This document shows, one piece after another, positions 5,848 to 25,957 of a stretch of DNA of 25,957 nucleotides. Every line of letters starts with the position of its first letter. The first letter of the stretch is position 1. Source of the DNA: a virus (Duplodnaviria > Heunggongvirae > Uroviricota > Caudoviricetes); IMG/VR virus record IMGVR_UViG_2693429508_000004; one strand, given 5' to 3'. The translations under genes and the position numbers were made by a program. Under the pieces are notes generated by a model. The model ran no database searches and was not told where the DNA came from. It was given only the letters and a program-made list of their open reading frames with translations.

Positions 5848-6854
5848 CCGGTTACAACGGCATTATCGCCCGTCTGCAACAGGCTGCCAGCGACCCGATG
5901 GTGGACGGCATTCTGCTCGATATGGACACACCGGGCGGAATGGTGGCGGGAGCATTTGACTGCGCTGACATCATCGCCCGTGTGCGTGACATAAAGCCGG
6001 TATGGGCGCTGGCCAATGACATGAACTGCAGCGCAGGTCAGCTGCTTGCCAGTGCCGCCTCCCGGCGTCTGGTCACGCAGACCGCCCGGACAGGCTCCAT
6101 CGGCGTCATGATGGCTCACAGTAATTACGGCGCTGCACTGGAGAAACAGGGCGTGGAAATCACGCTGATTTACAGCGGCAGCCATAAGGTGGATGGCAAC
6201 CCCTACAGCCATCTACCGGATGATGTCCGGGAAACATTGCAGTCCCGGATGGATGCAACCCGCCGGATGTTTGCACAGAAGGTGTCGGCATATACCGGCC
6301 TGTCCGTGCAGGCTGTGCTGGATACCGAGGCTGCAGTGTACAGCGGTCAGGAGGCCATTGATGCCGGACTGGCTGATGAACTTGTTAACAGTACCGATGC
6401 GATCACCGTCATGCGTGATGCACTGGATGCACGTAAATCCCGTCTCTCAGGAGGGCGAATGACCAAAGAGACTCAATCAACAACTGTTTCAGCCACTGCT
6501 TCGCAGGCTGACGTTACTGGCGTGGTGCAAGCGACGGAGGGCGAGAACGCCAGCGCGGCGCAGCCGGACGTGAACGCGCAGATCACCGCAGCGGTTGCGG
6601 CAGAAAACAGTCGCATTATGGGGATCCTCAACTGTGAGGAGGCTCACGGACGCGAAGAACAGGCACGCGTGCTGGCCGAAACCCCCGGTATGACCGTGGA
6701 AACGGCCCGCCGTATTCTGGCCGCAGCACCACAGAGTGCACAGACGCGCAGTGACACTGCGCTGGATCGTCTGATGCAGGGGGCACCGGCACCGCTGGCT
6801 GCAGGTAACCCGGCATCTGATGCCGTTAACGATTTGCTGAACACACCAGTGTAA
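5844..6854 (+). CDS. C: Remainder of gene C (S49-type protease region plus Nu3 region) in a different frame from the N-terminal fragment
   Basis: 336 aa from ATG 5844, MTGYNGIIARLQQAASDPMVDGILLDMDTPGGMVAGAFD...NDMNCSAGQ...; matches lambda gpC residues from about 104 onward, including the region around the recalled catalytic Ser. Confidence 0.8.
   Translation: MTGYNGIIARLQQAASDPMVDGILLDMDTPGGMVAGAFDCADIIARVRDIKPVWALANDMNCSAGQLLASAASRRLVTQTARTGSIGVMMAHSNYGAALEKQGVEITLIYSGSHKVDGNPYSHLPDDVRETLQSRMDATRRMFAQKVSAYTGLSVQAVLDTEAAVYSGQEAIDAGLADELVNSTDAITVMRDALDARKSRLSGGRMTKETQSTTVSATASQADVTGVVQATEGENASAAQPDVNAQITAAVAAENSRIMGILNCEEAHGREEQARVLAETPGMTVETARRILAAAPQSAQTRSDTALDRLMQGAPAPLAAGNPASDAVNDLLNTPV
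6249..6854 (+). CDS. nu3: Scaffolding protein Nu3 (in-frame internal start nested in C)
   Basis: ATG at 6249 (MDATRRMFAQKVSAYTG...) is in frame with the C ORF and shares its stop. Nesting of nu3 in C is established for lambda; no independent signal in the sequence. Confidence 0.5.
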   Translation: MDATRRMFAQKVSAYTGLSVQAVLDTEAAVYSGQEAIDAGLADELVNSTDAITVMRDALDARKSRLSGGRMTKETQSTTVSATASQADVTGVVQATEGENASAAQPDVNAQITAAVAAENSRIMGILNCEEAHGREEQARVLAETPGMTVETARRILAAAPQSAQTRSDTALDRLMQGAPAPLAAGNPASDAVNDLLNTPV

Positions 6855-11666: not shown

Positions 11667-14217
11667 ACCGGTAGGCGATCTGGTCGTTGATTTGAGTCTG
11701 GATGCGGCCAGATTTGACGAGCAGATGGCCAGAGTCAGGCGTCATTTTTCCGGTACGGAAAGTGATGCGAAAAAAACAGCGGCAGTCGTTGAACAGTCGC
11801 TGAGCCGACAGGCGCTGGCTGCACAGAAAGCGGGGATTTCCGTCGGGCAGTATAAAGCCGCCATGCGTATGCTGCCTGCACAGTTCACCGACGTGGCCAC
11901 GCAGCTTGCAGGGGGGCAGAATCCCTGGCTGATCCTGCTGCAACAGGGTGGTCAGGTTAAGGACTCCTTCGGCGGGATGATCCCCATGTTCAGGGGGCTT
12001 GCCGGCGCGATCACCCTGCCGATGGTGGGGGCCACCTCGCTGGCGGTGGCGACCGGTGCGCTGGCGTATGCCTGGTATCAGGGCAACTCAACCCTGTCCG
12101 ATTTCAACAAAACGCTGGTCCTTTCCGGTAATCAGGCGGGACTGACGGCAGATCGTATGCTGGTCCTGTCCAGAGCCGGGCAGGCGGCAGGGCTGACGTT
12201 TAACCAGACCAGCGAGTCACTCAGCGCACTGGTTAAGGCGGGGGTAAGCGGTGAGGCTCAGATTGCGTCCATCAGCCAGAGTGTGGCGCGTTTCTCCTCT
12301 GCATCCGGCGTGGAGGTGGACAAGGTCGCTGAAGCCTTCGGGAAGCTGACCACAGACCCGACGTCGGGGCTGACGGCGATGGCACGCCAGTTCCATAACG
12401 TGACGGCGGAGCAGATTGCGTATGTTGCTCAGTTGCAGCGTTCCGGCGATGAAGCCGGGGCATTGCAGGCGGCGAACGAGGCCGCAACGAAAGGGTTTGA
12501 TGACCAGACCCGCCGCCTGAAAGAGAACATGGGCACGCTGGAGACCTGGGCAGACAGGACTGCACGTGCATTCAAATCCATGTGGGATGCGGTGCTGGAT
12601 ATTGGTCGTCCTGATACCGCGCAGGAGATGCTGATTAAGGCAGAGGCTGCGTTTAAGAAAGCAGACGACATCTGGAATCTGCGCAAGGATGATTATTTCG
12701 TTAACGATGAAGCACGGGCGCGTTACTGGGATGATCGTGAAAAAAAACGCCTGGAGCGGGATGCAGCCCAAAAGAGGGTAGATCAACAGCGTCAACAGGA
12801 CAAAAATGCGCAGCAGCAGAGCGATACCGAAGCGTCACGGCTGAAATATACCGAAGAGGCGCAGAAGGCTTACGAACGGCTGCAGACGCCGCTGGAGAAA
12901 TATACCGCCCGTCAGGAAGAACTGAACAAGGCACTGAAAGACGGAAAAATCCTGCAGGCAGATTACAACACGCTGATGGCGGCGAAAAAGGATTATGAAG
13001 CGACGCTGAAAAAGCCGAAACAGTCCGGCGTGAAGGTGTATGCGGGCGATCGTCAGGAAGACAGTGCTCATGCGGCCCTGCTGACGCTTCAGGCAGAACT
13101 CCGGACGCTGGAGAAGCATGCCGGAGCGAATGAGAAAATCAGCCAGCAGCGCCGGGATTTGTGGAAGGCAGAAAGTCAGTTCGCGGTACTGGAGGAGGCG
13201 GCACAACGTCGCCAGCTGTCCGCACAGGAGAAATCCCTGCTGGCGCATAAAGACGAGACGCTGGAGTACAAACGCCAGCTGGCTGCACTTGGTGACAAGG
13301 TTACGTATCAGGAGCACCTGAATGCGCTGGCGCAGCAGGCGGATAAATTCGCACAGCAGCAACGGGCAAAACGGGCAGCCATTGATGCGAAAAACCGGGG
13401 GCTGACTGACCGGCAGGCAGCGCGGGAAGCCACGGAACAGCGCCTGAAGGAACAGTATGGCGATAATCCTCTGGCGCTGAATAACGTCATGTCAGAGCAG
13501 AAAAAGACCTGGGCGGCTGAAGACCAGCTTCGCGGGAGCTGGATGGCAGGCCTGAAGTCCGGCTGGAGTGAGTGGGAAGAGAGCGCCACGGACAGTATGT
13601 CACAGGTTAAAAGTGCAGCCACGCAGACCTTTGATGGTATTGCACAGAATATGGCGGCGATGCTGACCGGCAGTGAACAGAACTGGCGCAGCTTCACCCG
13701 CTCCGTGCTGTCCATGATGACAGAAATTCTGCTTAAGCAGGCAATGGTGGGGATTGTCGGGAGTATCGGCAGCGCCATTGGCGGGGCTGTTGGTGGCGGC
13801 GCATCCGCGTCAGGTGGTACAGCCATTCAGGCCGCTGCGGCGAAATTCCATTTTGCAACTGGGGGATTTACGGGAACCGGCGGCAAATATGAGCCAGCGG
13901 GGATTGTTCACCGTGGTGAATTTGTCTTCACGAAGGAGGCAACCAGCCGGATTGGCGTGGGGAATCTCTACCGGCTGATGCGCGGCTATGCGGAAGGTGG
14001 TTATGTGGGCGGTGCCGGAAGTCCGGCGCAGATGCGGCGGGCTGAAGGCATTAATTTTAATCAGAACAATCACGTGGTGATTCAGAACGACGGCCCCAAC
14101 GGGCGGGCAGGGCCGCAGCTGATGAAAGCGGTGTATGAGATGGCCCGCAAGGGGGCACAGGATGAACTCCGGCTGCAGTTGCGTGATGGCGGTATGTTAT
14201 CAGGGAGCGGTGGATGA
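11659..14217 (+). CDS. H: Tail tape measure protein H
   Basis: 852 aa, MAEPVGDLVVDLSLDAARFDEQMARVRRHFSGTESDAKKTAAVVEQ..., with long coiled-coil-like Q/A/K/E-rich middle and glycine-rich C-terminal region; lambda gpH position and size (853 aa recalled). Confidence 0.96.
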   Translation: MAEPVGDLVVDLSLDAARFDEQMARVRRHFSGTESDAKKTAAVVEQSLSRQALAAQKAGISVGQYKAAMRMLPAQFTDVATQLAGGQNPWLILLQQGGQVKDSFGGMIPMFRGLAGAITLPMVGATSLAVATGALAYAWYQGNSTLSDFNKTLVLSGNQAGLTADRMLVLSRAGQAAGLTFNQTSESLSALVKAGVSGEAQIASISQSVARFSSASGVEVDKVAEAFGKLTTDPTSGLTAMARQFHNVTAEQIAYVAQLQRSGDEAGALQAANEAATKGFDDQTRRLKENMGTLETWADRTARAFKSMWDAVLDIGRPDTAQEMLIKAEAAFKKADDIWNLRKDDYFVNDEARARYWDDREKKRLERDAAQKRVDQQRQQDKNAQQQSDTEASRLKYTEEAQKAYERLQTPLEKYTARQEELNKALKDGKILQADYNTLMAAKKDYEATLKKPKQSGVKVYAGDRQEDSAHAALLTLQAELRTLEKHAGANEKISQQRRDLWKAESQFAVLEEAAQRRQLSAQEKSLLAHKDETLEYKRQLAALGDKVTYQEHLNALAQQADKFAQQQRAKRAAIDAKNRGLTDRQAAREATEQRLKEQYGDNPLALNNVMSEQKKTWAAEDQLRGSWMAGLKSGWSEWEESATDSMSQVKSAATQTFDGIAQNMAAMLTGSEQNWRSFTRSVLSMMTEILLKQAMVGIVGSIGSAIGGAVGGGASASGGTAIQAAAAKFHFATGGFTGTGGKYEPAGIVHRGEFVFTKEATSRIGVGNLYRLMRGYAEGGYVGGAGSPAQMRRAEGINFNQNNHVVIQNDGPNGRAGPQLMKAVYEMARKGAQDELRLQLRDGGMLSGSGG

Positions 14218-16577: not shown

Positions 16578-16619
16578 AATAAAAAAATCCCGCAGTGATC
16601 GCGGACAGGAACTGCGGGA
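16578..16619 (-). terminator. Minus-strand intrinsic terminator immediately after the I stop
   Basis: Plus-strand TCCCGCAG (16588-16595) pairs with CTGCGGGA (16612-16619), with a 16-nt loop. On the minus strand the stem is followed by TTTTTTT (plus A-run 16581-16587). Confidence 0.45.
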
Positions 16620-16677
16620 GAGTTACGAAGATTAAGTGTAAGGAATTATTCTTATATCACGACAAAAAAATTAACGC
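16578..16677 (-). ncRNA. Candidate ~100-nt small RNA (promoter-to-terminator unit with no ATG-initiated ORF)
   Basis: Bounded by the minus-strand promoter-like element at 16684-16711 and the terminator at 16578-16619. The minus-strand sequence between them has no ATG. Prediction only. Confidence 0.3.
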
Positions 16678-16683
16678 AGAGAA

Positions 16684-16711
16684 ATTATACGCGCCACAGT
16701 CAGTTTGTGAA
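16684..16711 (-). promoter_or_regulatory. sigma70-like promoter on the minus strand (TTCACA - 16 nt - TATAAT)
   Basis: Minus strand reads TTCACAAACTGACTGTGGCGCGTATAAT; perfect -10 hexamer (plus 16684-16689), 5/6 match at -35 (plus 16706-16711). Confidence 0.4.
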
Positions 16712-16779
16712 AATGTGAAGATATTCAGAATTTTTATGCCATTACCGGTTTTAACCAACAGGATTATCGGTGGGCATGA

Positions 16780-16819
16780 AAGAAAACCCCGGTATCTGCT
16801 GATACCGGGGTTTCTCTTT
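16780..16819. terminator. Bidirectional-looking intrinsic terminator hairpin upstream of J
   Basis: Perfect 10-bp stem CCCCGGTATC (16787-16796) / GATACCGGGG (16801-16810) with 4-nt loop; TTTCTCTTT follows on the plus strand and TTTTCTTTC on the minus strand. Confidence 0.5.
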
Positions 16820-16916
16820 AGCATGGCAGAAATGTGTTTCATGCTTTTCGGGCGAAGGATATCCGACTTCTGTACGGAATGGCAAGTGGCGGTTAATTTA
16901 TTCAGGGGAAGGCTGT

Positions 16917-19900
16917 ATGGGAAAAGGTGGCGGTAAGGCACACACGCCTCGTGAGGCGAAGGATAATCTCAAATCCACGCAGATGATGAGCGTGATTGAT
17001 GCGATTGGTGAGGGACCGATAGAAGGTCCGGTGAAGGGACTGCAGAGTATCCTGGTGAACAAAACCCCGCTGACGGACACGGACGGTAATCCCGTGATAC
17101 ACGGTGTGACGGCGGTCTGACGCGCCGGGGAGCAGGAGCAGACACCACCGGAAGGCTTTGAGTCCTCCGGTGCTGAAACCGGACTGGGCGTGGAAGTGAC
17201 GAAGGCAAAACCGGTGACGCGCACCATTACGTCCGCGAACATTGACCGCCTGCGGGTTACCTTCGGGGTGCAGTCACTGGTGCAGACCACGTCAAAGGGT
17301 GACCGAAACCCGACATCCGTCCGCCTGCTGATTCAGTTACAGCGTAACGGTAACTGGGTGACAGAAAAGGATGTCACCATTAACGGCAAGACCACCTCGC
17401 AGTTTCTGGCGTCGGTGATTCTGGATAATCTGCCTCCCCGTCCTTTTAACATCCGGATGGTCCGGGAGACAGCGGACAGCACCACGGACCAGCTGCAGAA
17501 TAAGACGCTGTGGTCGTCATACACCGAAATCATCGATGTGAAACAGTGCTACCCGAACACGGCCATTGTGGGGCTGCAGGTGGATGCGGAGCAGTTCGGC
17601 GGCCAGCAGATGACGGTGAACTACCATATCCGCGGTCGCATCATCCAGGTGCCGTCAAACTATGACCCGGAAAAACGCACGTACAGTGGTATCTGGGACG
17701 GCAGCCTGAAACCGGCATACAGCAACAATCCGGCCTGGTGTCTGTGGGACATGCTGACTCACCCGCGCTACGGCATGGGAAAACGTCTGGGGGCGGCGGA
17801 TGTGGACAAGTGGGCGCTGTATGCCATCGGGCAGTACTGCGACCAGACGGTCCCGGATGGTTTCGGGGAGACCGAGCCGCGGATGACCTTCAATGCGTAC
17901 CTGGCACAACAGCGTAAGGCATGGGACGTGCTCAGTGATTTCTGCTCGGCGATGCGCTGTATGCCGGTATGGAACGGCCAGACGCTGACGTTTGTTCAGG
18001 ACCGCCCGTCGGATGTGGTGTGGCCGTACACCAACAGCGATGTGGTGGTGGATGATAACGGCGTGGGTTTCCGCTACAGCTTCAGTGCCCTGAAGGACCG
18101 GCACACGGCGGTGGAGGTGAATTATACCGACCCGCAGAACGGCTGGCAGACCTCCACGGAACTGGTGGAAGACCCGGAAGCCATACTGCGCTACGGACGC
18201 AACCTGCTGAAGATGGACGCGTTCGGCTGTACCAGCCGCGGTCAGGCCCACCGTGCCGGACTGTGGGTGATAAAGACCGAACTGCTGGAAACGCAGACGG
18301 TGGATTTCACGCTCGGGTCTCAGGGGCTGCGGCACACACCCGGTGACATCATTGAAATCTGTGATAACGACTATGCCGGGACCCTGACCGGCGGACGTGT
18401 CCTGTCCATTGATGCTGCCACCCGCACTCTGACGCTGGACCGTGAAGTGACACTTCCGGAGACCGGTGCCGCCACGGTGAACCTGATTAACGGCAGCGGT
18501 AAGCCGGTGAGTGTGGACATCACCGAACACCCCGCGCCGGACCGGATACAGGTCAGTACCCTGCCTGATGGTGTGGAGACATACGGGGTGTGGGGACTCT
18601 CCCTGCCGTCACTGCGCCGTCGCCTGTTCCGCTGTGTCTCCGTCCGGGAAAACACGGACGGCACCTTTGCCATCACGGCGGTGCAGCACGTACTGGAAAA
18701 AGAAGCCATCGTGGATAACGGTGCCCGCTTTGAGCCGCAGTCAGGTTCCCTGAACAGCGTCATCCCACCGGCAGTGCAGCACCTGACGGCCAGTATCTGG
18801 CGCAGGCGAAATGGGACACGCCGCGGGTGGTGAAGGGTGTGCGCTTCAGTCTGCGCCTGACCAGTGGTAAGGGAACGGATGCCAGACTGGTGACCACCGC
18901 CATCACCGCAGACACGGAGCACCGTTTCAGCGGCCTGCCGCTCGGGGAATACACCCTGACGGTGCGGGCGATAAACAGCTATGGCCAGCAGGGTGAACCT
19001 GCCACCACCACCTTCCGGATTGCCGCACCGGCAGCACCGTCGCGGATTGAGCTGACGCCGGGCTATTTTCAGATAACCGCAACGCCGCATCTTGCCGTTT
19101 ATGACCCGACGGTACAGTTTGAGTTCTGGTTCTCGGAAAAGCGGATTGCGGATATCAGGCAGGTTGAAACCAGCGCCCGCTATCTTGGCACGGCGCTGTA
19201 CTGGATAGCCGCCAGTATCAATATCAAACCGGGCCATGATTATTACTTTTATATCCGCAGTGTGAACACCGTTGGCAAATCGGCATTCGTGGAGGCTGTC
19301 GGTCGGGCGAGCGATGATGCGGAAGGTTACCTGGATTTTTTCAAAGGAGAGATAGGGAAAACACATCTGGCTCAGGAGCTGTGGACGCAGATTGATAACG
19401 GTCAGCTTGCGCCTGACCTGGCTGAAATCAGGACGTCCATTACGGATGTCAGCAATGAAATCACGCAGACTGTCAATAAGAAACTGAAAGACCAGAGTGC
19501 GGCAATCCNNNNNGTCGCGGATTGAGCTGACGCCGGGCTATTTTCAGATAACCGCCACGCCGCATCTTGCGGTTTATGATCCGACGGTACAGTTTGAGTT
19601 CTGGTTCTCGGAAAAGCGGATTGCGGATATCAGGCAGGTTGAAACCACAGCACGCTATCTTGGCACGGCGCTGTACTGGATAGCCGCCAGTATCAATATC
19701 AAACCGGGCCATGATTATTATTTTTACGTTCGCAGTGTGAACACCGTTGGCAAATCGGCATTCGTGGAGGCTGTTGGTCAGCCGAGTGATGATGCATCCG
19801 GTTATCTGGATTTTTTCAAAGGCGAGATAGGGAAAACCCATCTGGCTCAGGAGCTGTGGACGCAGATTGATAACGGTCAGCTTGCGCCTGACCTGGCTGA

Positions 19901-20861
19901 AATCAGGACGTCCATTACGGATGTCAGCAATGAAATCACGCAGACCGTCAATAAGAAACTGGAAGACCAGAGTGCGGCAATTCAGCAGATACAGAAGGTT
20001 CAGGTTGATACAAATAATAACCTGAACAGCATGTGGGCTGTGAAGCTGCAGCAGATGCAGGACGGACGCCTTTATATCGCGGGTATTGGTGCCGGTATTG
20101 AGAACACCCCTGACGGCATGCAGAGTCAGGTGCTGCTGGCGGCGGACAGGATTGCGATGGTTAATCCTGCGAATGGCAACACAAAACCGATGTTTGTTGG
20201 TCAGGGCGATCAGATATTCATGAACGACGTGTTCCTGAAATGCCTGACGGCCCCCACCATTACCAGCGGTGGAAATCCATCGGCATTTTCCCTGACTCCG
20301 GACGGAAAGCTGACCGCTAAAAATGCGGATATCAGTGGCAGTGTGAATGCGAACGCCGGGACGCTCAACAATGTCACGGTAAATGAAAACTGTACGATTA
20401 AGGGCATGCTGGAGGCGACTCAGGTCAGAGGTGACTTCGTTAAAGCTGTATCCAAATCATTTCCGAAACAGGCTGGTACGTGGGGTAACACGGAAACACC
20501 AAACGGGACGGTTACAGTCACCATAAGCGATGATCATAACTTTGACCGCCAGATTATTATTCCGCCCATTATTTTTAACGGTATAGCGTATGACGATCCG
20601 GGGAGCGGAAATAACCCAGGAGGCACGCGATACACGGGTTATGGTTTTGAAGTTCGCAAAAACGGCGTATTAATCGCATCCAGAGAAACTAAAGGTGCCA
20701 TTCCCGGTAGTTACAGTGCAGTTATTGATATGCCTAGTGGTGGTGGTAGCGTCACTCTGGAGTTTAAGATTTTCCAGAAAGGCAATCAGGGGGCAGGCAA
20801 TATCACCGACTGTACGGTGATTGTGACCAAAAAAGCGGCTTCCGGCATCAGTATTCGTTGA
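16917..20861 (+). pseudogene. J: Central tail fibre / host specificity protein J, interrupted (in-frame TGA, frameshift, gap-flanked duplication)
   Basis: Four consecutive track ORFs (16917..17120, 17190..18833, 18827..19525, 19497..20861) together cover a lambda gpJ-like protein: MGKGGGKAHTPREAKDNLKSTQ..., ...ITAVQHVLEKEAIVDNG..., ...[39 protein letters not shown]..., ...[44 protein letters not shown].... The C-terminal ~200 aa differ from lambda as recalled. Confidence 0.85.
19509..19513. other. Assembly gap (5 N) inside J between two diverged ~470-bp direct repeats
   Basis: nnnnn in the sequence; 19039-19508 and 19514-19983 are about 97 percent identical by eye. Confidence 0.99.
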
Positions 20862-24596: not shown

Positions 24597-25177
24597 TGGC
24601 ATTCAGAATGAGTGAACAAGCACGGACCATAAAAATTTATAACCTGCTGGCCGGAACTAATGAATTTATTGGTGAAGGTGACGCATATATTCCGCCTCAT
24701 ACAGGTCTGCCTGCAAACAGTACCGATATTGCACCGCCAGATATTCCGGCTGGTTTCGTGGCTGTTTTCAACAGTGATGAGTCATCGTGGCATCTCGTTG
24801 AAGATCATCGGGGTAAAACGGTTTATGACGTGGCTTCCGGCGACGCGTTATTTATTTCTGAACTCGGCTCATTACCGGAAAATGTCACCTGGTTATCCCC
24901 GGAAGGGGAGTTTCAGAAGTGGAACGGCACAGCCTGGGTGAAGGATACGGAAGCAGAAAAACTGTTCCGGATCCGGGAGGCGGAAGAAACAAAAAACAGC
25001 CTGATGCAGGTAGCCAGTGAGCATATAGCGCCGCTTCAGGATGCTGTGGATCTGGAGATCGCAACGGAGAAAGAAACCTTGTTGCTGGAAGCCTGGAAAA
25101 AGTATCGGGTGTTGCTGAACCGTGTTGATACATCAACTGCACCGGATATTGAATGGCCAGTAGCACCTATAGGGTAA
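24596..25177 (+). CDS. tfa: Tail fibre assembly protein Tfa
   Basis: 193 aa, [62 protein letters not shown]...; near-identical to lambda Tfa as recalled; start overlaps the stf stop. Confidence 0.95.
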
Positions 25178-25260
25178 ATTCGTAATGATTACCTAAATAC
25201 GTTATTCTTTTGTTAAAAAAGTGATTTTGCTATAGGTAGGGAGTATGTTCTTGGATTAAG

Positions 25261-25294
25261 AATAAAAAATCGCCATGAAAGAGCTTCATGGCGA
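25261..25294 (-). terminator. Strong minus-strand intrinsic terminator in the AT-rich region
   Basis: Perfect 10-bp stem TCGCCATGAA (25270-25279) / TTCATGGCGA (25285-25294) with 5-nt loop; on the minus strand it is followed by TTTTTTATT (plus A-run 25261-25269). Confidence 0.55.
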
Positions 25295-25442
25295 GTACAT
25301 AAACGTACAAAATGTGATGAAAGTAGAGTGGCGTAAGCCACTATATTAAGATATGACAATAGCGAAGAAAAGTAAATAACATTTTATGGACGTTTAATTG
25401 TTAATTATAAAAACTAGAGTGCCCGATATTGTTTATCTTGCT

Positions 25443-25544
25443 TTAAAATAATGTACTCAAACCAAATTTTTGAGCTAAAAGCTCAAATAATATAAATGCA
25501 ATAATAATGTTTAATAAGACAATTAGCTTGCTTTGTATTTTCAT
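25443..25544 (-). CDS. Candidate 33-aa hydrophobic small protein (speculative)
   Basis: Hand translation of the minus strand: MKIQSKLIVLLNIIIAFILFELLAQKFGLSTLF*. One predicted transmembrane-like segment. No clear Shine-Dalgarno motif; a TTGACT-17 nt-TATTGT promoter-like element lies about 40 nt upstream on the minus strand. Confidence 0.2.
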   Translation of the reverse strand: MKIQSKLIVLLNIIIAFILFELLAQKFGLSTLF

Positions 25545-25926
25545 TTCGGAATACTGTTAAGTAACTTTGATGACCCTAACAATAGATCGGAATTTTCTTA
25601 GAGTCAATGGTCACTGTTTTTGCTTGCAAAGCAAATGTTTTGGTGGTTATAAGTTGTCTTAATATAGTCACGCATGCAACTTGTTCCATGCGGAGATTAA
25701 AGATTGGAATATAACGCGAAGATGGAATTAAATTACATTTGCAATAATCAATTTATTATTACTCAATAATTACCGATATTATTATTGTAAATTAATCATT
25801 AGAGTGCAAAAAGAAATGTAACGGCAAAATAAGAGGACGATAGCTGAGAAAAAAGCGTGCTTTCCCAATCTGGGGCAAATCACGTCTGAATGACACCTGA
25901 AAACAGGTGGTAGCCTCAAGAAGGCT

Positions 25927-25957
25927 GGTGATGCTGCCAACTTACTGATTTAGTGTA
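25927..25957 (+). mobile_element. IS1 left-end (IRL) terminal fragment; element continues beyond the window end
   Basis: GGTGATGCTGCCAACTTACTGATTTAGTGTA is the IS1 left terminus in forward orientation and the exact reverse complement of positions 18-48. Confidence 0.85.

Follow-up and report, generated by a model that had tools for sequence, protein, structure and literature searches.

An AT-rich stretch behind tfa of a lambda-like Escherichia coli prophage as a probable moron with a YncL-like small-protein gene and a conserved RNA segment

Introduction

What can a prophage carry in a stretch of AT-rich DNA that follows its tail-fibre genes and contains no long open reading frame (ORF)? The question is raised by positions 25178-25926 of a virus-derived DNA of 25,957 nucleotides (Caudoviricetes; IMG/VR record IMGVR_UViG_2693429508_000004), which is referred to below at its full length as the window. 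These 749 bp are located between the stop codon of tfa and the end of an IS1 element. The original prediction, which was made from the sequence alone, had regarded them as horizontally acquired accessory DNA in the place of the lambda b-region, possibly holding small genes, a small RNA (sRNA) or the remnants of a disrupted locus, and had expected a minus-strand transcription unit to the right of a hairpin. The reading preferred here, to which we assign a probability of about 0.68, is that the stretch consists of horizontally acquired accessory DNA in three pieces, the first of which is a leftward moron with a YncL-family gene and a 3' RNA segment.

Phage morons, in the concept of Hendrix and Juhala, are extra genes of lambdoid phages, such as lom and bor of lambda, which have their own promoter and terminator and a deviant base composition. 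Judged by its sequence, the cassette exhibits the testable features of a moron, namely a promoter-like site, a factor-independent terminator, a G+C content (GC) ~24 points below that of its neighbours, a position at the end of a tail-fibre gene and a patchy occurrence among related phages. It differs from other morons in carrying a 33-codon gene and a possible sRNA rather than a protein gene of normal size, and in being read against the late operon.

Results

Composition and division of the stretch

The computed GC of 25178-25926 is 31.6% (0.316) versus 55.2% (0.552) for 1-25177 and 0.486 in tfa, which bears out the sharp drop after the tfa stop codon that had been estimated by eye. The lowest other 749-bp stretch of the window has a GC of 0.346 and is found at the window start, where positions 1-800 form a second AT-rich stretch (GC ~0.35) upstream of the packaging and head genes. 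As had also been noted, all ORFs that overlap 25178-25926, on whichever strand, are shorter than 60 codons. BLAST coverage divides the stretch into three parts, 25178-25755, 25756-25841 and 25842-25926, with GC values of 0.30, 0.26 and 0.48, respectively. Its earlier description as one AT-rich block is therefore valid for most of its length, but neither for the last 85 bp nor for its unity, since the three pieces are unrelated to each other. Neither a GC equal to that of the flanks nor an ordinary conserved spacer, the two outcomes which the original prediction had named against itself, was found, and the region is a mosaic instead of a plain spacer.

A 33-codon ORF with similarity to YncL

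The first and largest piece contains the elements expected of a small leftward transcription unit, all on the minus strand:

25607-25579, minus strand: sigma-70-like promoter TTGACT-17-TATTGT, agreeing with the consensus in 9/12 positions, the best minus-strand match of the region
25544..25443, minus strand: 33-codon ORF MKIQSKLIVLLNIIIAFILFELLAQKFGLSTLF with a YncL-family match, putatively encoding a single-pass small membrane protein
25350..25378, minus strand: weak and doubtful promoter-like site TTTACT-17-TATCTT, agreeing with the consensus in 8/12 positions, unlisted by the promoter scan, with the -35 hexamer kept in all lineages
25343..25262, minus strand: conserved structured RNA block of 82 nt, a candidate sRNA or RNA derived from a 3' untranslated region (3' UTR), as judged by fold and conservation
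25262..25294, minus strand: intrinsic terminator with a 10-11 bp stem (TCGCCATGAA/TTCATGGCGA at 25294..25270) followed by the T-run TTTTTT

The 33-residue peptide matches a single NCBIfam model, that of YncL (NF000537), over positions 1-28 of 30 with 25.0 bits (E = 1.3e-5), and its three natural variants score 25.0, 23.5 and 22.5 bits (E = 1e-5 to 8e-5). As these scores are significant but remain below 35 bits, the curated cut-off of the model, the phage peptide is to be regarded on this evidence as a distant YncL paralogue, not as an equivalog, and the difference between 25 and 35 bits would also explain the missing PGAP annotation. Hydrophobic composition by itself does not account for the match: eight shuffled versions of the peptide gave no hit to any NCBIfam model at E values up to 10. 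A direct BLASTP alignment with YncL of K-12 is gapless from Met1 and covers residues 1-28 with 11/28 identical (39%) and 18/28 similar positions (E = 2e-7), and the YncL positions S5, V9-L10, N12, A16, L19-F20, L22 and [KR]26-F27-G28 are kept in all three variants.

Conservation was assessed with 35 unique haplotypes obtained from 57 loci (genome, phage and IMG/VR). The ATG, the TAA and the length of the ORF are intact in every one of the 35, and a comparison with the most diverged lineage (L006) reveals 18 nucleotide differences, distributed 7/1/10 over the three codon positions, with only five residue changes, all of which are hydrophobic swaps or surface changes. If the same number and kind of substitutions are placed at random, the ORF stays intact with at most five changes in 0.015% of the trials (P = 1.5e-4); a second comparison, with six nucleotide differences and one residue change, gives P = 0.014. 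This pattern argues that the ORF is under purifying selection, and an unannotated small-protein gene at 25544..25443 is highly probable. The predicted centroid fold leaves the leader and the start codon of the ORF unpaired.

Database searches return few further copies of the peptide. An exact match occurs in a collection of 15 billion proteins only as two unnamed metagenome calls, and a phmmer search of 1.84 billion representatives retrieves only the peptide itself and one frameshifted metagenome variant (P0018). Pfam and PHROGs contain no match to the peptide, and tblastn against phages found none, though the DNA is present in four phage records and the low-complexity filter may be the cause. 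A full-text literature search for the peptide, RNA or terminator sequence yielded no paper, and no earlier description of a mobile YncL paralogue was found in the libraries and papers searched.

Other reading frames of the region were considered and rejected. The two longest are a 52-aa ORF (25782..25940, minus strand), which starts inside the IS1 end, and a 48-aa ORF (25213-25359, minus strand), which is broken by a T-run deletion. A 37-aa ORF (25576-25689, minus strand) annotated in phage PhiR70_1 starts with ACG in place of ATG in three lineages and is interrupted by indels in L006, and a 24-aa ORF on the plus strand inside the RNA block (25275-25349) lacks a Shine-Dalgarno sequence and shows 4/5 non-synonymous changes. 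As to an upstream ORF for translational coupling with the 33-codon ORF, the sole start codon available lies inside the -10 hexamer, as read by hand.

Terminator, RNA block and promoter

The 10-bp hairpin followed by a T-run on the minus strand, the starting point of the original prediction, is confirmed at 25262-25294. Two terminator-like sites are found in 25000-25957, compared to 0.7 expected from shuffled sequences. Within the stem-loop, 2/25 columns vary, strain A20 having a mismatch inside the stem, and the T-run occurs in variants with five T or as TTTCTT.

The terminator forms the end of the 82-nt RNA block, which has the same orientation as the ORF and begins 100 nt after it. Its predicted fold consists, from 5' to 3', of a 6-bp hairpin, an 18-nt single-stranded stretch rich in U, C and A (CUCUACUUUCAUCACAUUUU), a 4-bp hairpin and the terminator, with a minimum free energy of -27.1 kcal/mol (z = -7.0; 0/200 shuffles are as stable). 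The intrinsic terminator with its U-tail, together with the predicted single-stranded stretch before it, represents an Hfq-type feature. Compared to the L006 lineage, the block differs in 5/82 positions (6%), whereas 105/368 of the other non-coding columns (28.5%) are changed (Fisher p = 3.7e-6), and the spacer immediately after the ORF shows 44% divergence. As far as fold and conservation can tell, the chances that the block is an sRNA are about even.

The promoter at 25607-25579 is likewise well kept, with 3/29 differing positions in the L006 lineage versus 46% in the stretch just upstream. With this promoter-like site, the YncL-like ORF and the conserved structured block, the unit predicted to the right of the hairpin has found plausible constituents on the minus strand. 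Upstream of the promoter lies one further conserved element:

25645..25722, strand unassigned: conserved block upstream of the promoter, with 10-14% divergence between lineages and 18% between L013 and L006

For comparison, the middle stretch and the spacer diverge by 44-49% from L006. Homology to the sit-type lineage starts at this block, which may be regulatory. Its predicted folding is unremarkable (z = -2.4 and -1.2), and a search of the block for a convincing divergent promoter or structure was negative.

Distribution and mosaic structure

Many E. coli chromosomes contain the same 749 bp with an identity of 99-100%, as do the lambdoid phages mEp332, PhiR70_1 and ev099, the latter under two accessions; module DNA is found in 4 of 50,697 phage records. 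Among 5426 complete E. coli genomes, the ORF segment is contained in 828 and the RNA block in 827 (~15%, or ~1 in 7), always on the chromosome, which indicates that the two are co-inherited. Many clinical and livestock isolates are among the carriers. A search of 185,579 species-representative genomes with exact and degenerate DNA patterns gave no hit for the module, which appears to be confined to E. coli accessory DNA, and all matches in IMG/VR as well as 24 metagenome contigs belong to the same four lineages.

Intact relatives exhibit the gene order J, lom, stf, tfa, ~1.5 kb without annotation, a 247-aa regulator of the AraC family, insertion sequence remnants, the right prophage end and ybhB-bioA. 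As this order ends at ybhB-bioA, the element is identified as a lambda-like prophage integrated at the attachment site of lambda, and the stretch that separates tfa from the right prophage end indeed occupies the position of the lambda b-region. The segment 25178-25755 directly follows tfa in every locus opened, and different cargo is found beyond it. It is 91-96% identical in prophages without the AraC gene, which represent most of the carriers, and ~79% identical in one lineage. The cargo consists of a Qin-type right prophage end at ydfJ in L005, of a gene for a transporter of the major facilitator superfamily (MFS) and sitABCD in L006 and L012, and of sitABCD alone in L011, L013 and L014. 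The presence of the module in only some relatives, its deviant GC and these differing neighbours are in keeping with the proposed horizontal acquisition.

The left boundary of the module and its joints involve the following features:

25035..25177, plus strand: tfa 3' end, which travels with the module and forms the left recombination boundary; partly within the IS009 match at 24939-25137
25178..25261, strand unassigned: variable spacer from the tfa stop codon to the minus-strand terminator, with 43% of the columns varying among the 35 haplotypes and 35% divergence from the L006 lineage
25756..25841, strand unassigned: very AT-rich junction DNA (GC 0.26), present in the AraC-type arrangement only; homology to the Qin-type, sit-type and L006-type loci stops at 25755

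In L002 (97%) and L006 (76%), homology with the window begins within tfa, at 25035, and a second, directly repeated 3' fragment of tfa occurs beyond the module in L005 (6333-6421) and L006 (5542-5646). These two observations suggest that recombination within the conserved tfa 3' end mobilises the cassette. The same part of tfa contains a full-length match to the Rfam family IS009 (24939-25137, plus strand, 218 bits), which is located wholly inside the coding sequence and looks like a recombination handle for tail-fibre cassettes, not like an RNA gene.

IS009 matches have been linked to the prophage sRNA PasB (Zhu-Shabalina-Storz preprint). An identity of the RNA block with PasB was rejected: PasB of strain E2348/69 is located in the gap between I and J, and the part of it that recurs in the window, at 16581-16605, is confined to the 25-nt terminator. 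This match of the last 25 nt of PasB is perfect (100%), lies on the minus strand at the junction of the tail genes I and J and lacks the 5' body of PasB; the I-J gap measures ~20 nt in the window versus 240 nt in E2348/69. The adjacent gene J (tail tip, window 16595-20861) is split into four ORFs of 113, 547, 232 and 454 aa, and its alignment with J of E2348/69 is interrupted by 22 gaps over 2.6 kb and reveals an internal ~470-nt duplication, which reflects either the decay of a prophage gene or indel errors in the assembly.

The right end of the stretch

The third piece and the end of the window are made up of DNA of different origin:

25842..25926, plus strand: first 85 bp of a 535-bp module, a putative fossil attachment (att) arm truncated by IS1 and common to the right ends of other lambdoid prophages
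25927..25957, plus strand: left terminal inverted repeat of IS1, forming the last 31 bases of the window

The complete 535-bp module is 99% identical between the intact relative L004 (5665-6199) and L008 (4001-4535), where it is located at a right prophage end by zinT, and its first 213 bp (L004 5665-5877) are 97% identical to L007, an O157:H7 prophage end next to uspF. The 85-bp segment itself is present in more than 1000 genomes. About 115 bp past the IS1 cut point, L004 contains the 3' part of a tRNA, comprising the T-arm and the acceptor end (~5862-5922) and giving tRNA-like covariance matches, and a search of the intact spacer of L004 against Rfam returned nothing but such tRNA-like signals. 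We take this piece to be tRNA-Ser(CGA), encoded by serU, which lies near zinT. From this we infer that the third piece represents the arm on the phage side of a fossil attR, derived from a serU-integrating type of prophage. The occurrence of the module in a prophage at the lambda attachment site looks like the result of past recombination between prophages with different integration sites. Several hairpins are found inside the arm, namely an imperfect one followed by TTTTTT on the minus strand (~25847-25885) and two perfect short ones (25894-25909 and 25912-25926), which may be terminators or protein-binding sites belonging to the old phage arm.

Positions 25927-25957, which we take to be the terminal inverted repeat of IS1, form a junction that recurs exactly in at least 80 complete genomes. 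The transposase of IS1A is annotated right after the same junction in L063 (6168-7142), where IS1 replaces 550 bp (L004 5750-6299) of the AT-rich leader and the regulator gene follows 207 bp beyond IS1 in the same orientation. The 247-aa regulator of the AraC family is similar to YdeO and GadX (NF007407, E = 1.9e-43, below the cut-off). IS1 has cut the long, 1.5-kb AT-rich leader of this YdeO-like gene, and the junction may alter the expression of the regulator. The small genes, sRNA or remnants of a disrupted locus that had been suspected in the stretch have counterparts in the 33-codon ORF, the candidate RNA block and the fossil att arm with the IS1-cut leader, and the cautious interpretation given beforehand is supported as a whole.

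Discussion

Alternative explanations

Several observations weigh against the preferred reading of the first piece. The available sequences represent four lineages only, which leaves the conservation tests with essentially a single deep comparison. All three variants of the peptide miss the curated YncL cut-off, and the ATG of the ORF is not preceded by a Shine-Dalgarno sequence, the upstream DNA reading ...AGTATTCCGAA, while yncL of K-12 has AAGGTGG. The RNA block is no better conserved than its flanks against the L013 lineage, compensatory base-pair changes number zero in the alignment, and the candidate promoter of an sRNA, with 8/12 consensus positions and unlisted, is weak. These latter points would equally fit the view that the 82-nt block simply constitutes the 3' UTR of the small-protein gene together with the terminator, and that the high identity of the block results from recent recombination at a mosaic joint rather than from selection on an RNA. 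That recombination could create such a patch is shown by the crossover in L014, which changes from L013-like to L006-like exactly at the terminator. Moreover, no Rfam family was found in 25178-25926 (the best hits being MicC with 22.8 bits and Esr41 with 15.6 bits at gathering thresholds of 90 and 102, respectively, and E ~1-5), and predicted duplexes of the block with the 5' region of the YncL-like ORF, K-12 yncL, the AraC leader and 26 translation-initiation regions of the window did not surpass shuffled seeds. However, a plain terminator with its 3' UTR does not readily account for a fold far more stable than shuffled sequences (z = -7), for an arrangement known from Hfq-type sRNAs (5' hairpin, single-stranded U-rich stretch, U-tailed terminator), or for the 42 nt just upstream of the block, which are also better conserved than the spacer (21% versus 44% divergence). 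Most substitutions are unpaired or keep the pairing by wobble: of the five that separate the window from L013 in the block, two are unpaired and two lead to G-U pairs (CG to UG and AU to GU), though the remaining one, GC to GA in 2/7 rows, disrupts the 4-bp hairpin at its closing pair, and two other rows have lost the outer terminator pair through an additional change (UA to UC). The 3' UTR explanation is a serious one, which nevertheless appears somewhat less probable than even.

The combination of a small hydrophobic peptide with an adjacent, strongly conserved RNA is also reminiscent of a type I toxin-antitoxin (TA) module, in which the peptide would act as a toxin and the neighbouring RNA would repress its translation by pairing. 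Production of the related YncL leads to membrane depolarisation and reduced viability (PMC12542507), and yncL of K-12 adjoins the orphan toxin gene ortT. However, the RNA block is encoded on the same strand downstream of the ORF and hence is not antisense, and its best duplex with the 5' region of the ORF (-7.7 kcal/mol) is no stronger than the mean of shuffled sequences (-8.0 kcal/mol), with 51% of the shuffles reaching it. As the conserved block upstream of the promoter does not provide a convincing divergent promoter or structure either, a type I TA module is very unlikely. An even more modest standing is given to the assumption that the whole stretch is non-functional AT-rich filler, composed of a decaying remnant and the leader of the AraC gene silenced by H-NS, with an ORF arising by chance. 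AT-rich DNA readily gives rise to hydrophobic ORFs, the 33-codon ORF lacks a Shine-Dalgarno sequence, the right third truly belongs to the AraC leader, and neither the ORF nor the RNA block is annotated in the listed RefSeq records of the 800-plus genomes with the segment, where the match region reads 'none'. However, most carriers do not contain the AraC gene at all and have the module next to ydfJ, sitABCD or the MFS gene, the start, stop and length of the ORF are kept in all lineages with mostly synonymous changes, frameshifts occur in 0/35 haplotypes (the metagenome variant P0018 being the one frameshifted case), and the specific homology to YncL is absent from shuffled peptides.

Proposed mechanism

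The transcription, translation, sRNA and physiological role that we infer for the cassette may be combined as follows. The first piece (25178-25755 plus the last ~140 bp of tfa) would be a phage moron which is read leftward, against the late operon. Its sigma-70-type promoter at 25607-25579 would initiate a transcript of ~310 nt ending at the terminator (25294-25262), which would encode a 33-residue inner-membrane protein of the YncL family with a single helix, made in lysogens. The last ~80 nt before the T-run, a conserved and stably folded segment, would, at roughly even odds, persist as an sRNA that acts on host targets; it would be released from the 3' UTR or transcribed from a weak promoter of its own. 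By analogy with YncL of K-12, the phage copy could modulate the membrane energetics or the stress state of the lysogen, which would represent a case of lysogenic conversion; it might shift the lysogen to a low-energy tolerant state or hinder incoming phages or membrane-active peptides. Tail-fibre swapping, with crossovers in the conserved tfa 3' end, would spread the cassette, and late-operon read-through would be antisense to the whole cassette during lytic growth. The second piece (25756-25841) is junction DNA and the third (25842-25926) would be the outer arm of a fossil attachment site; in intact relatives, both lie within the 1.5-kb AT-rich leader of the YdeO/GadX-like regulator gene, from which the insertion of IS1 has removed 550 bp in the lineage of the window.

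The most far-reaching form of this proposal is a previously undescribed two-part device of lysogenic conversion, in which a membrane-depolarising YncL paralogue is combined with an sRNA from the 3' end of the same transcript that acts on host mRNAs. This form is possible but rather unlikely. In a weaker variant, the cassette would encode a novel small protein of toxin-like character and an RNA partner that is not antisense.

Comparison with known systems

Minimal medium, stationary phase and heat shock induce YncL of K-12, and its production causes a sublethal, partial depolarisation, nucleoid condensation, a phage-shock response, lower protein synthesis and a slowed metabolism (PMC12542507); it is also a substrate of RseP in vivo (PMC10470546). 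The K-12 protein (b4598, 31 aa; NF000537, 'stress response membrane protein YncL') falls into the same size class as the phage peptide, which is two residues longer at the C-terminus, and both share a short basic N-terminus, one hydrophobic helix with Asn12 and the motif [KR]-F-G after the helix. The genes differ in their setting, since the phage gene is part of a prophage moron after tfa, whereas yncL of K-12 is located between patD and ortT and is the only one of the two with a Shine-Dalgarno sequence. The phage gene is AT-rich and has its own conserved 3' RNA block, and no similarity of the K-12 yncL locus to it is apparent by eye at the DNA level. Upstream of yncL in K-12 (L010, ~12195-12350, minus strand), some pipelines call an ORF of 52-71 aa with an ATGA overlap with the yncL start, which shares the YncL cluster in the protein collection though it is the product of a different reading frame.

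With respect to the RNA block, the Hfq-dependent prophage sRNAs of pathogenic E. coli, PasA-D, Esr41, AgvB and AsxR (PMC8550237; PMC4104026; bioRxiv 10.64898/2026.05.13.724894), are the closest known counterparts. The similarity is confined to the architecture, i.e. an intergenic position in a lambdoid prophage, a length of ~80 nt, a 3' stem-loop with U-tail and an upstream single-stranded stretch, and to the patchy distribution within Escherichia; the block shows no sequence or covariance-model match to any of these sRNAs and has nothing in common with PasB in the I-J gap. Type I TA modules such as TisB/IstR-1, ShoB/OhsC, ZorO/OrzO and Hok/Sok resemble the cassette in combining a short hydrophobic membrane peptide with a conserved structured RNA, but the RNA of the cassette is co-directional and downstream, without antisense overlap or significant complementarity.

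Implications

YncL belongs to the small membrane proteins of E. coli whose effects are only beginning to be characterised, and a diverged copy on tail-fibre cassettes would represent its mobile paralogue. If this is true, phages traffic in micro-proteins as conversion genes, and the RNA block would be one more candidate among the increasing number of prophage sRNAs. If the two-part device also proved true, ~15% of the E. coli strains would tune dormancy, stress tolerance or the resistance to superinfecting phages or membrane-active peptides by this means. The case also illustrates how genes as short as ~100 nt escape annotation pipelines when located in AT-rich islands. As mEp332 and PhiR70_1 are culturable carriers which grow on K-12 or E. 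coli C, the cassette is directly testable; it would be unsurprising in kind, yet it is concrete and widespread.

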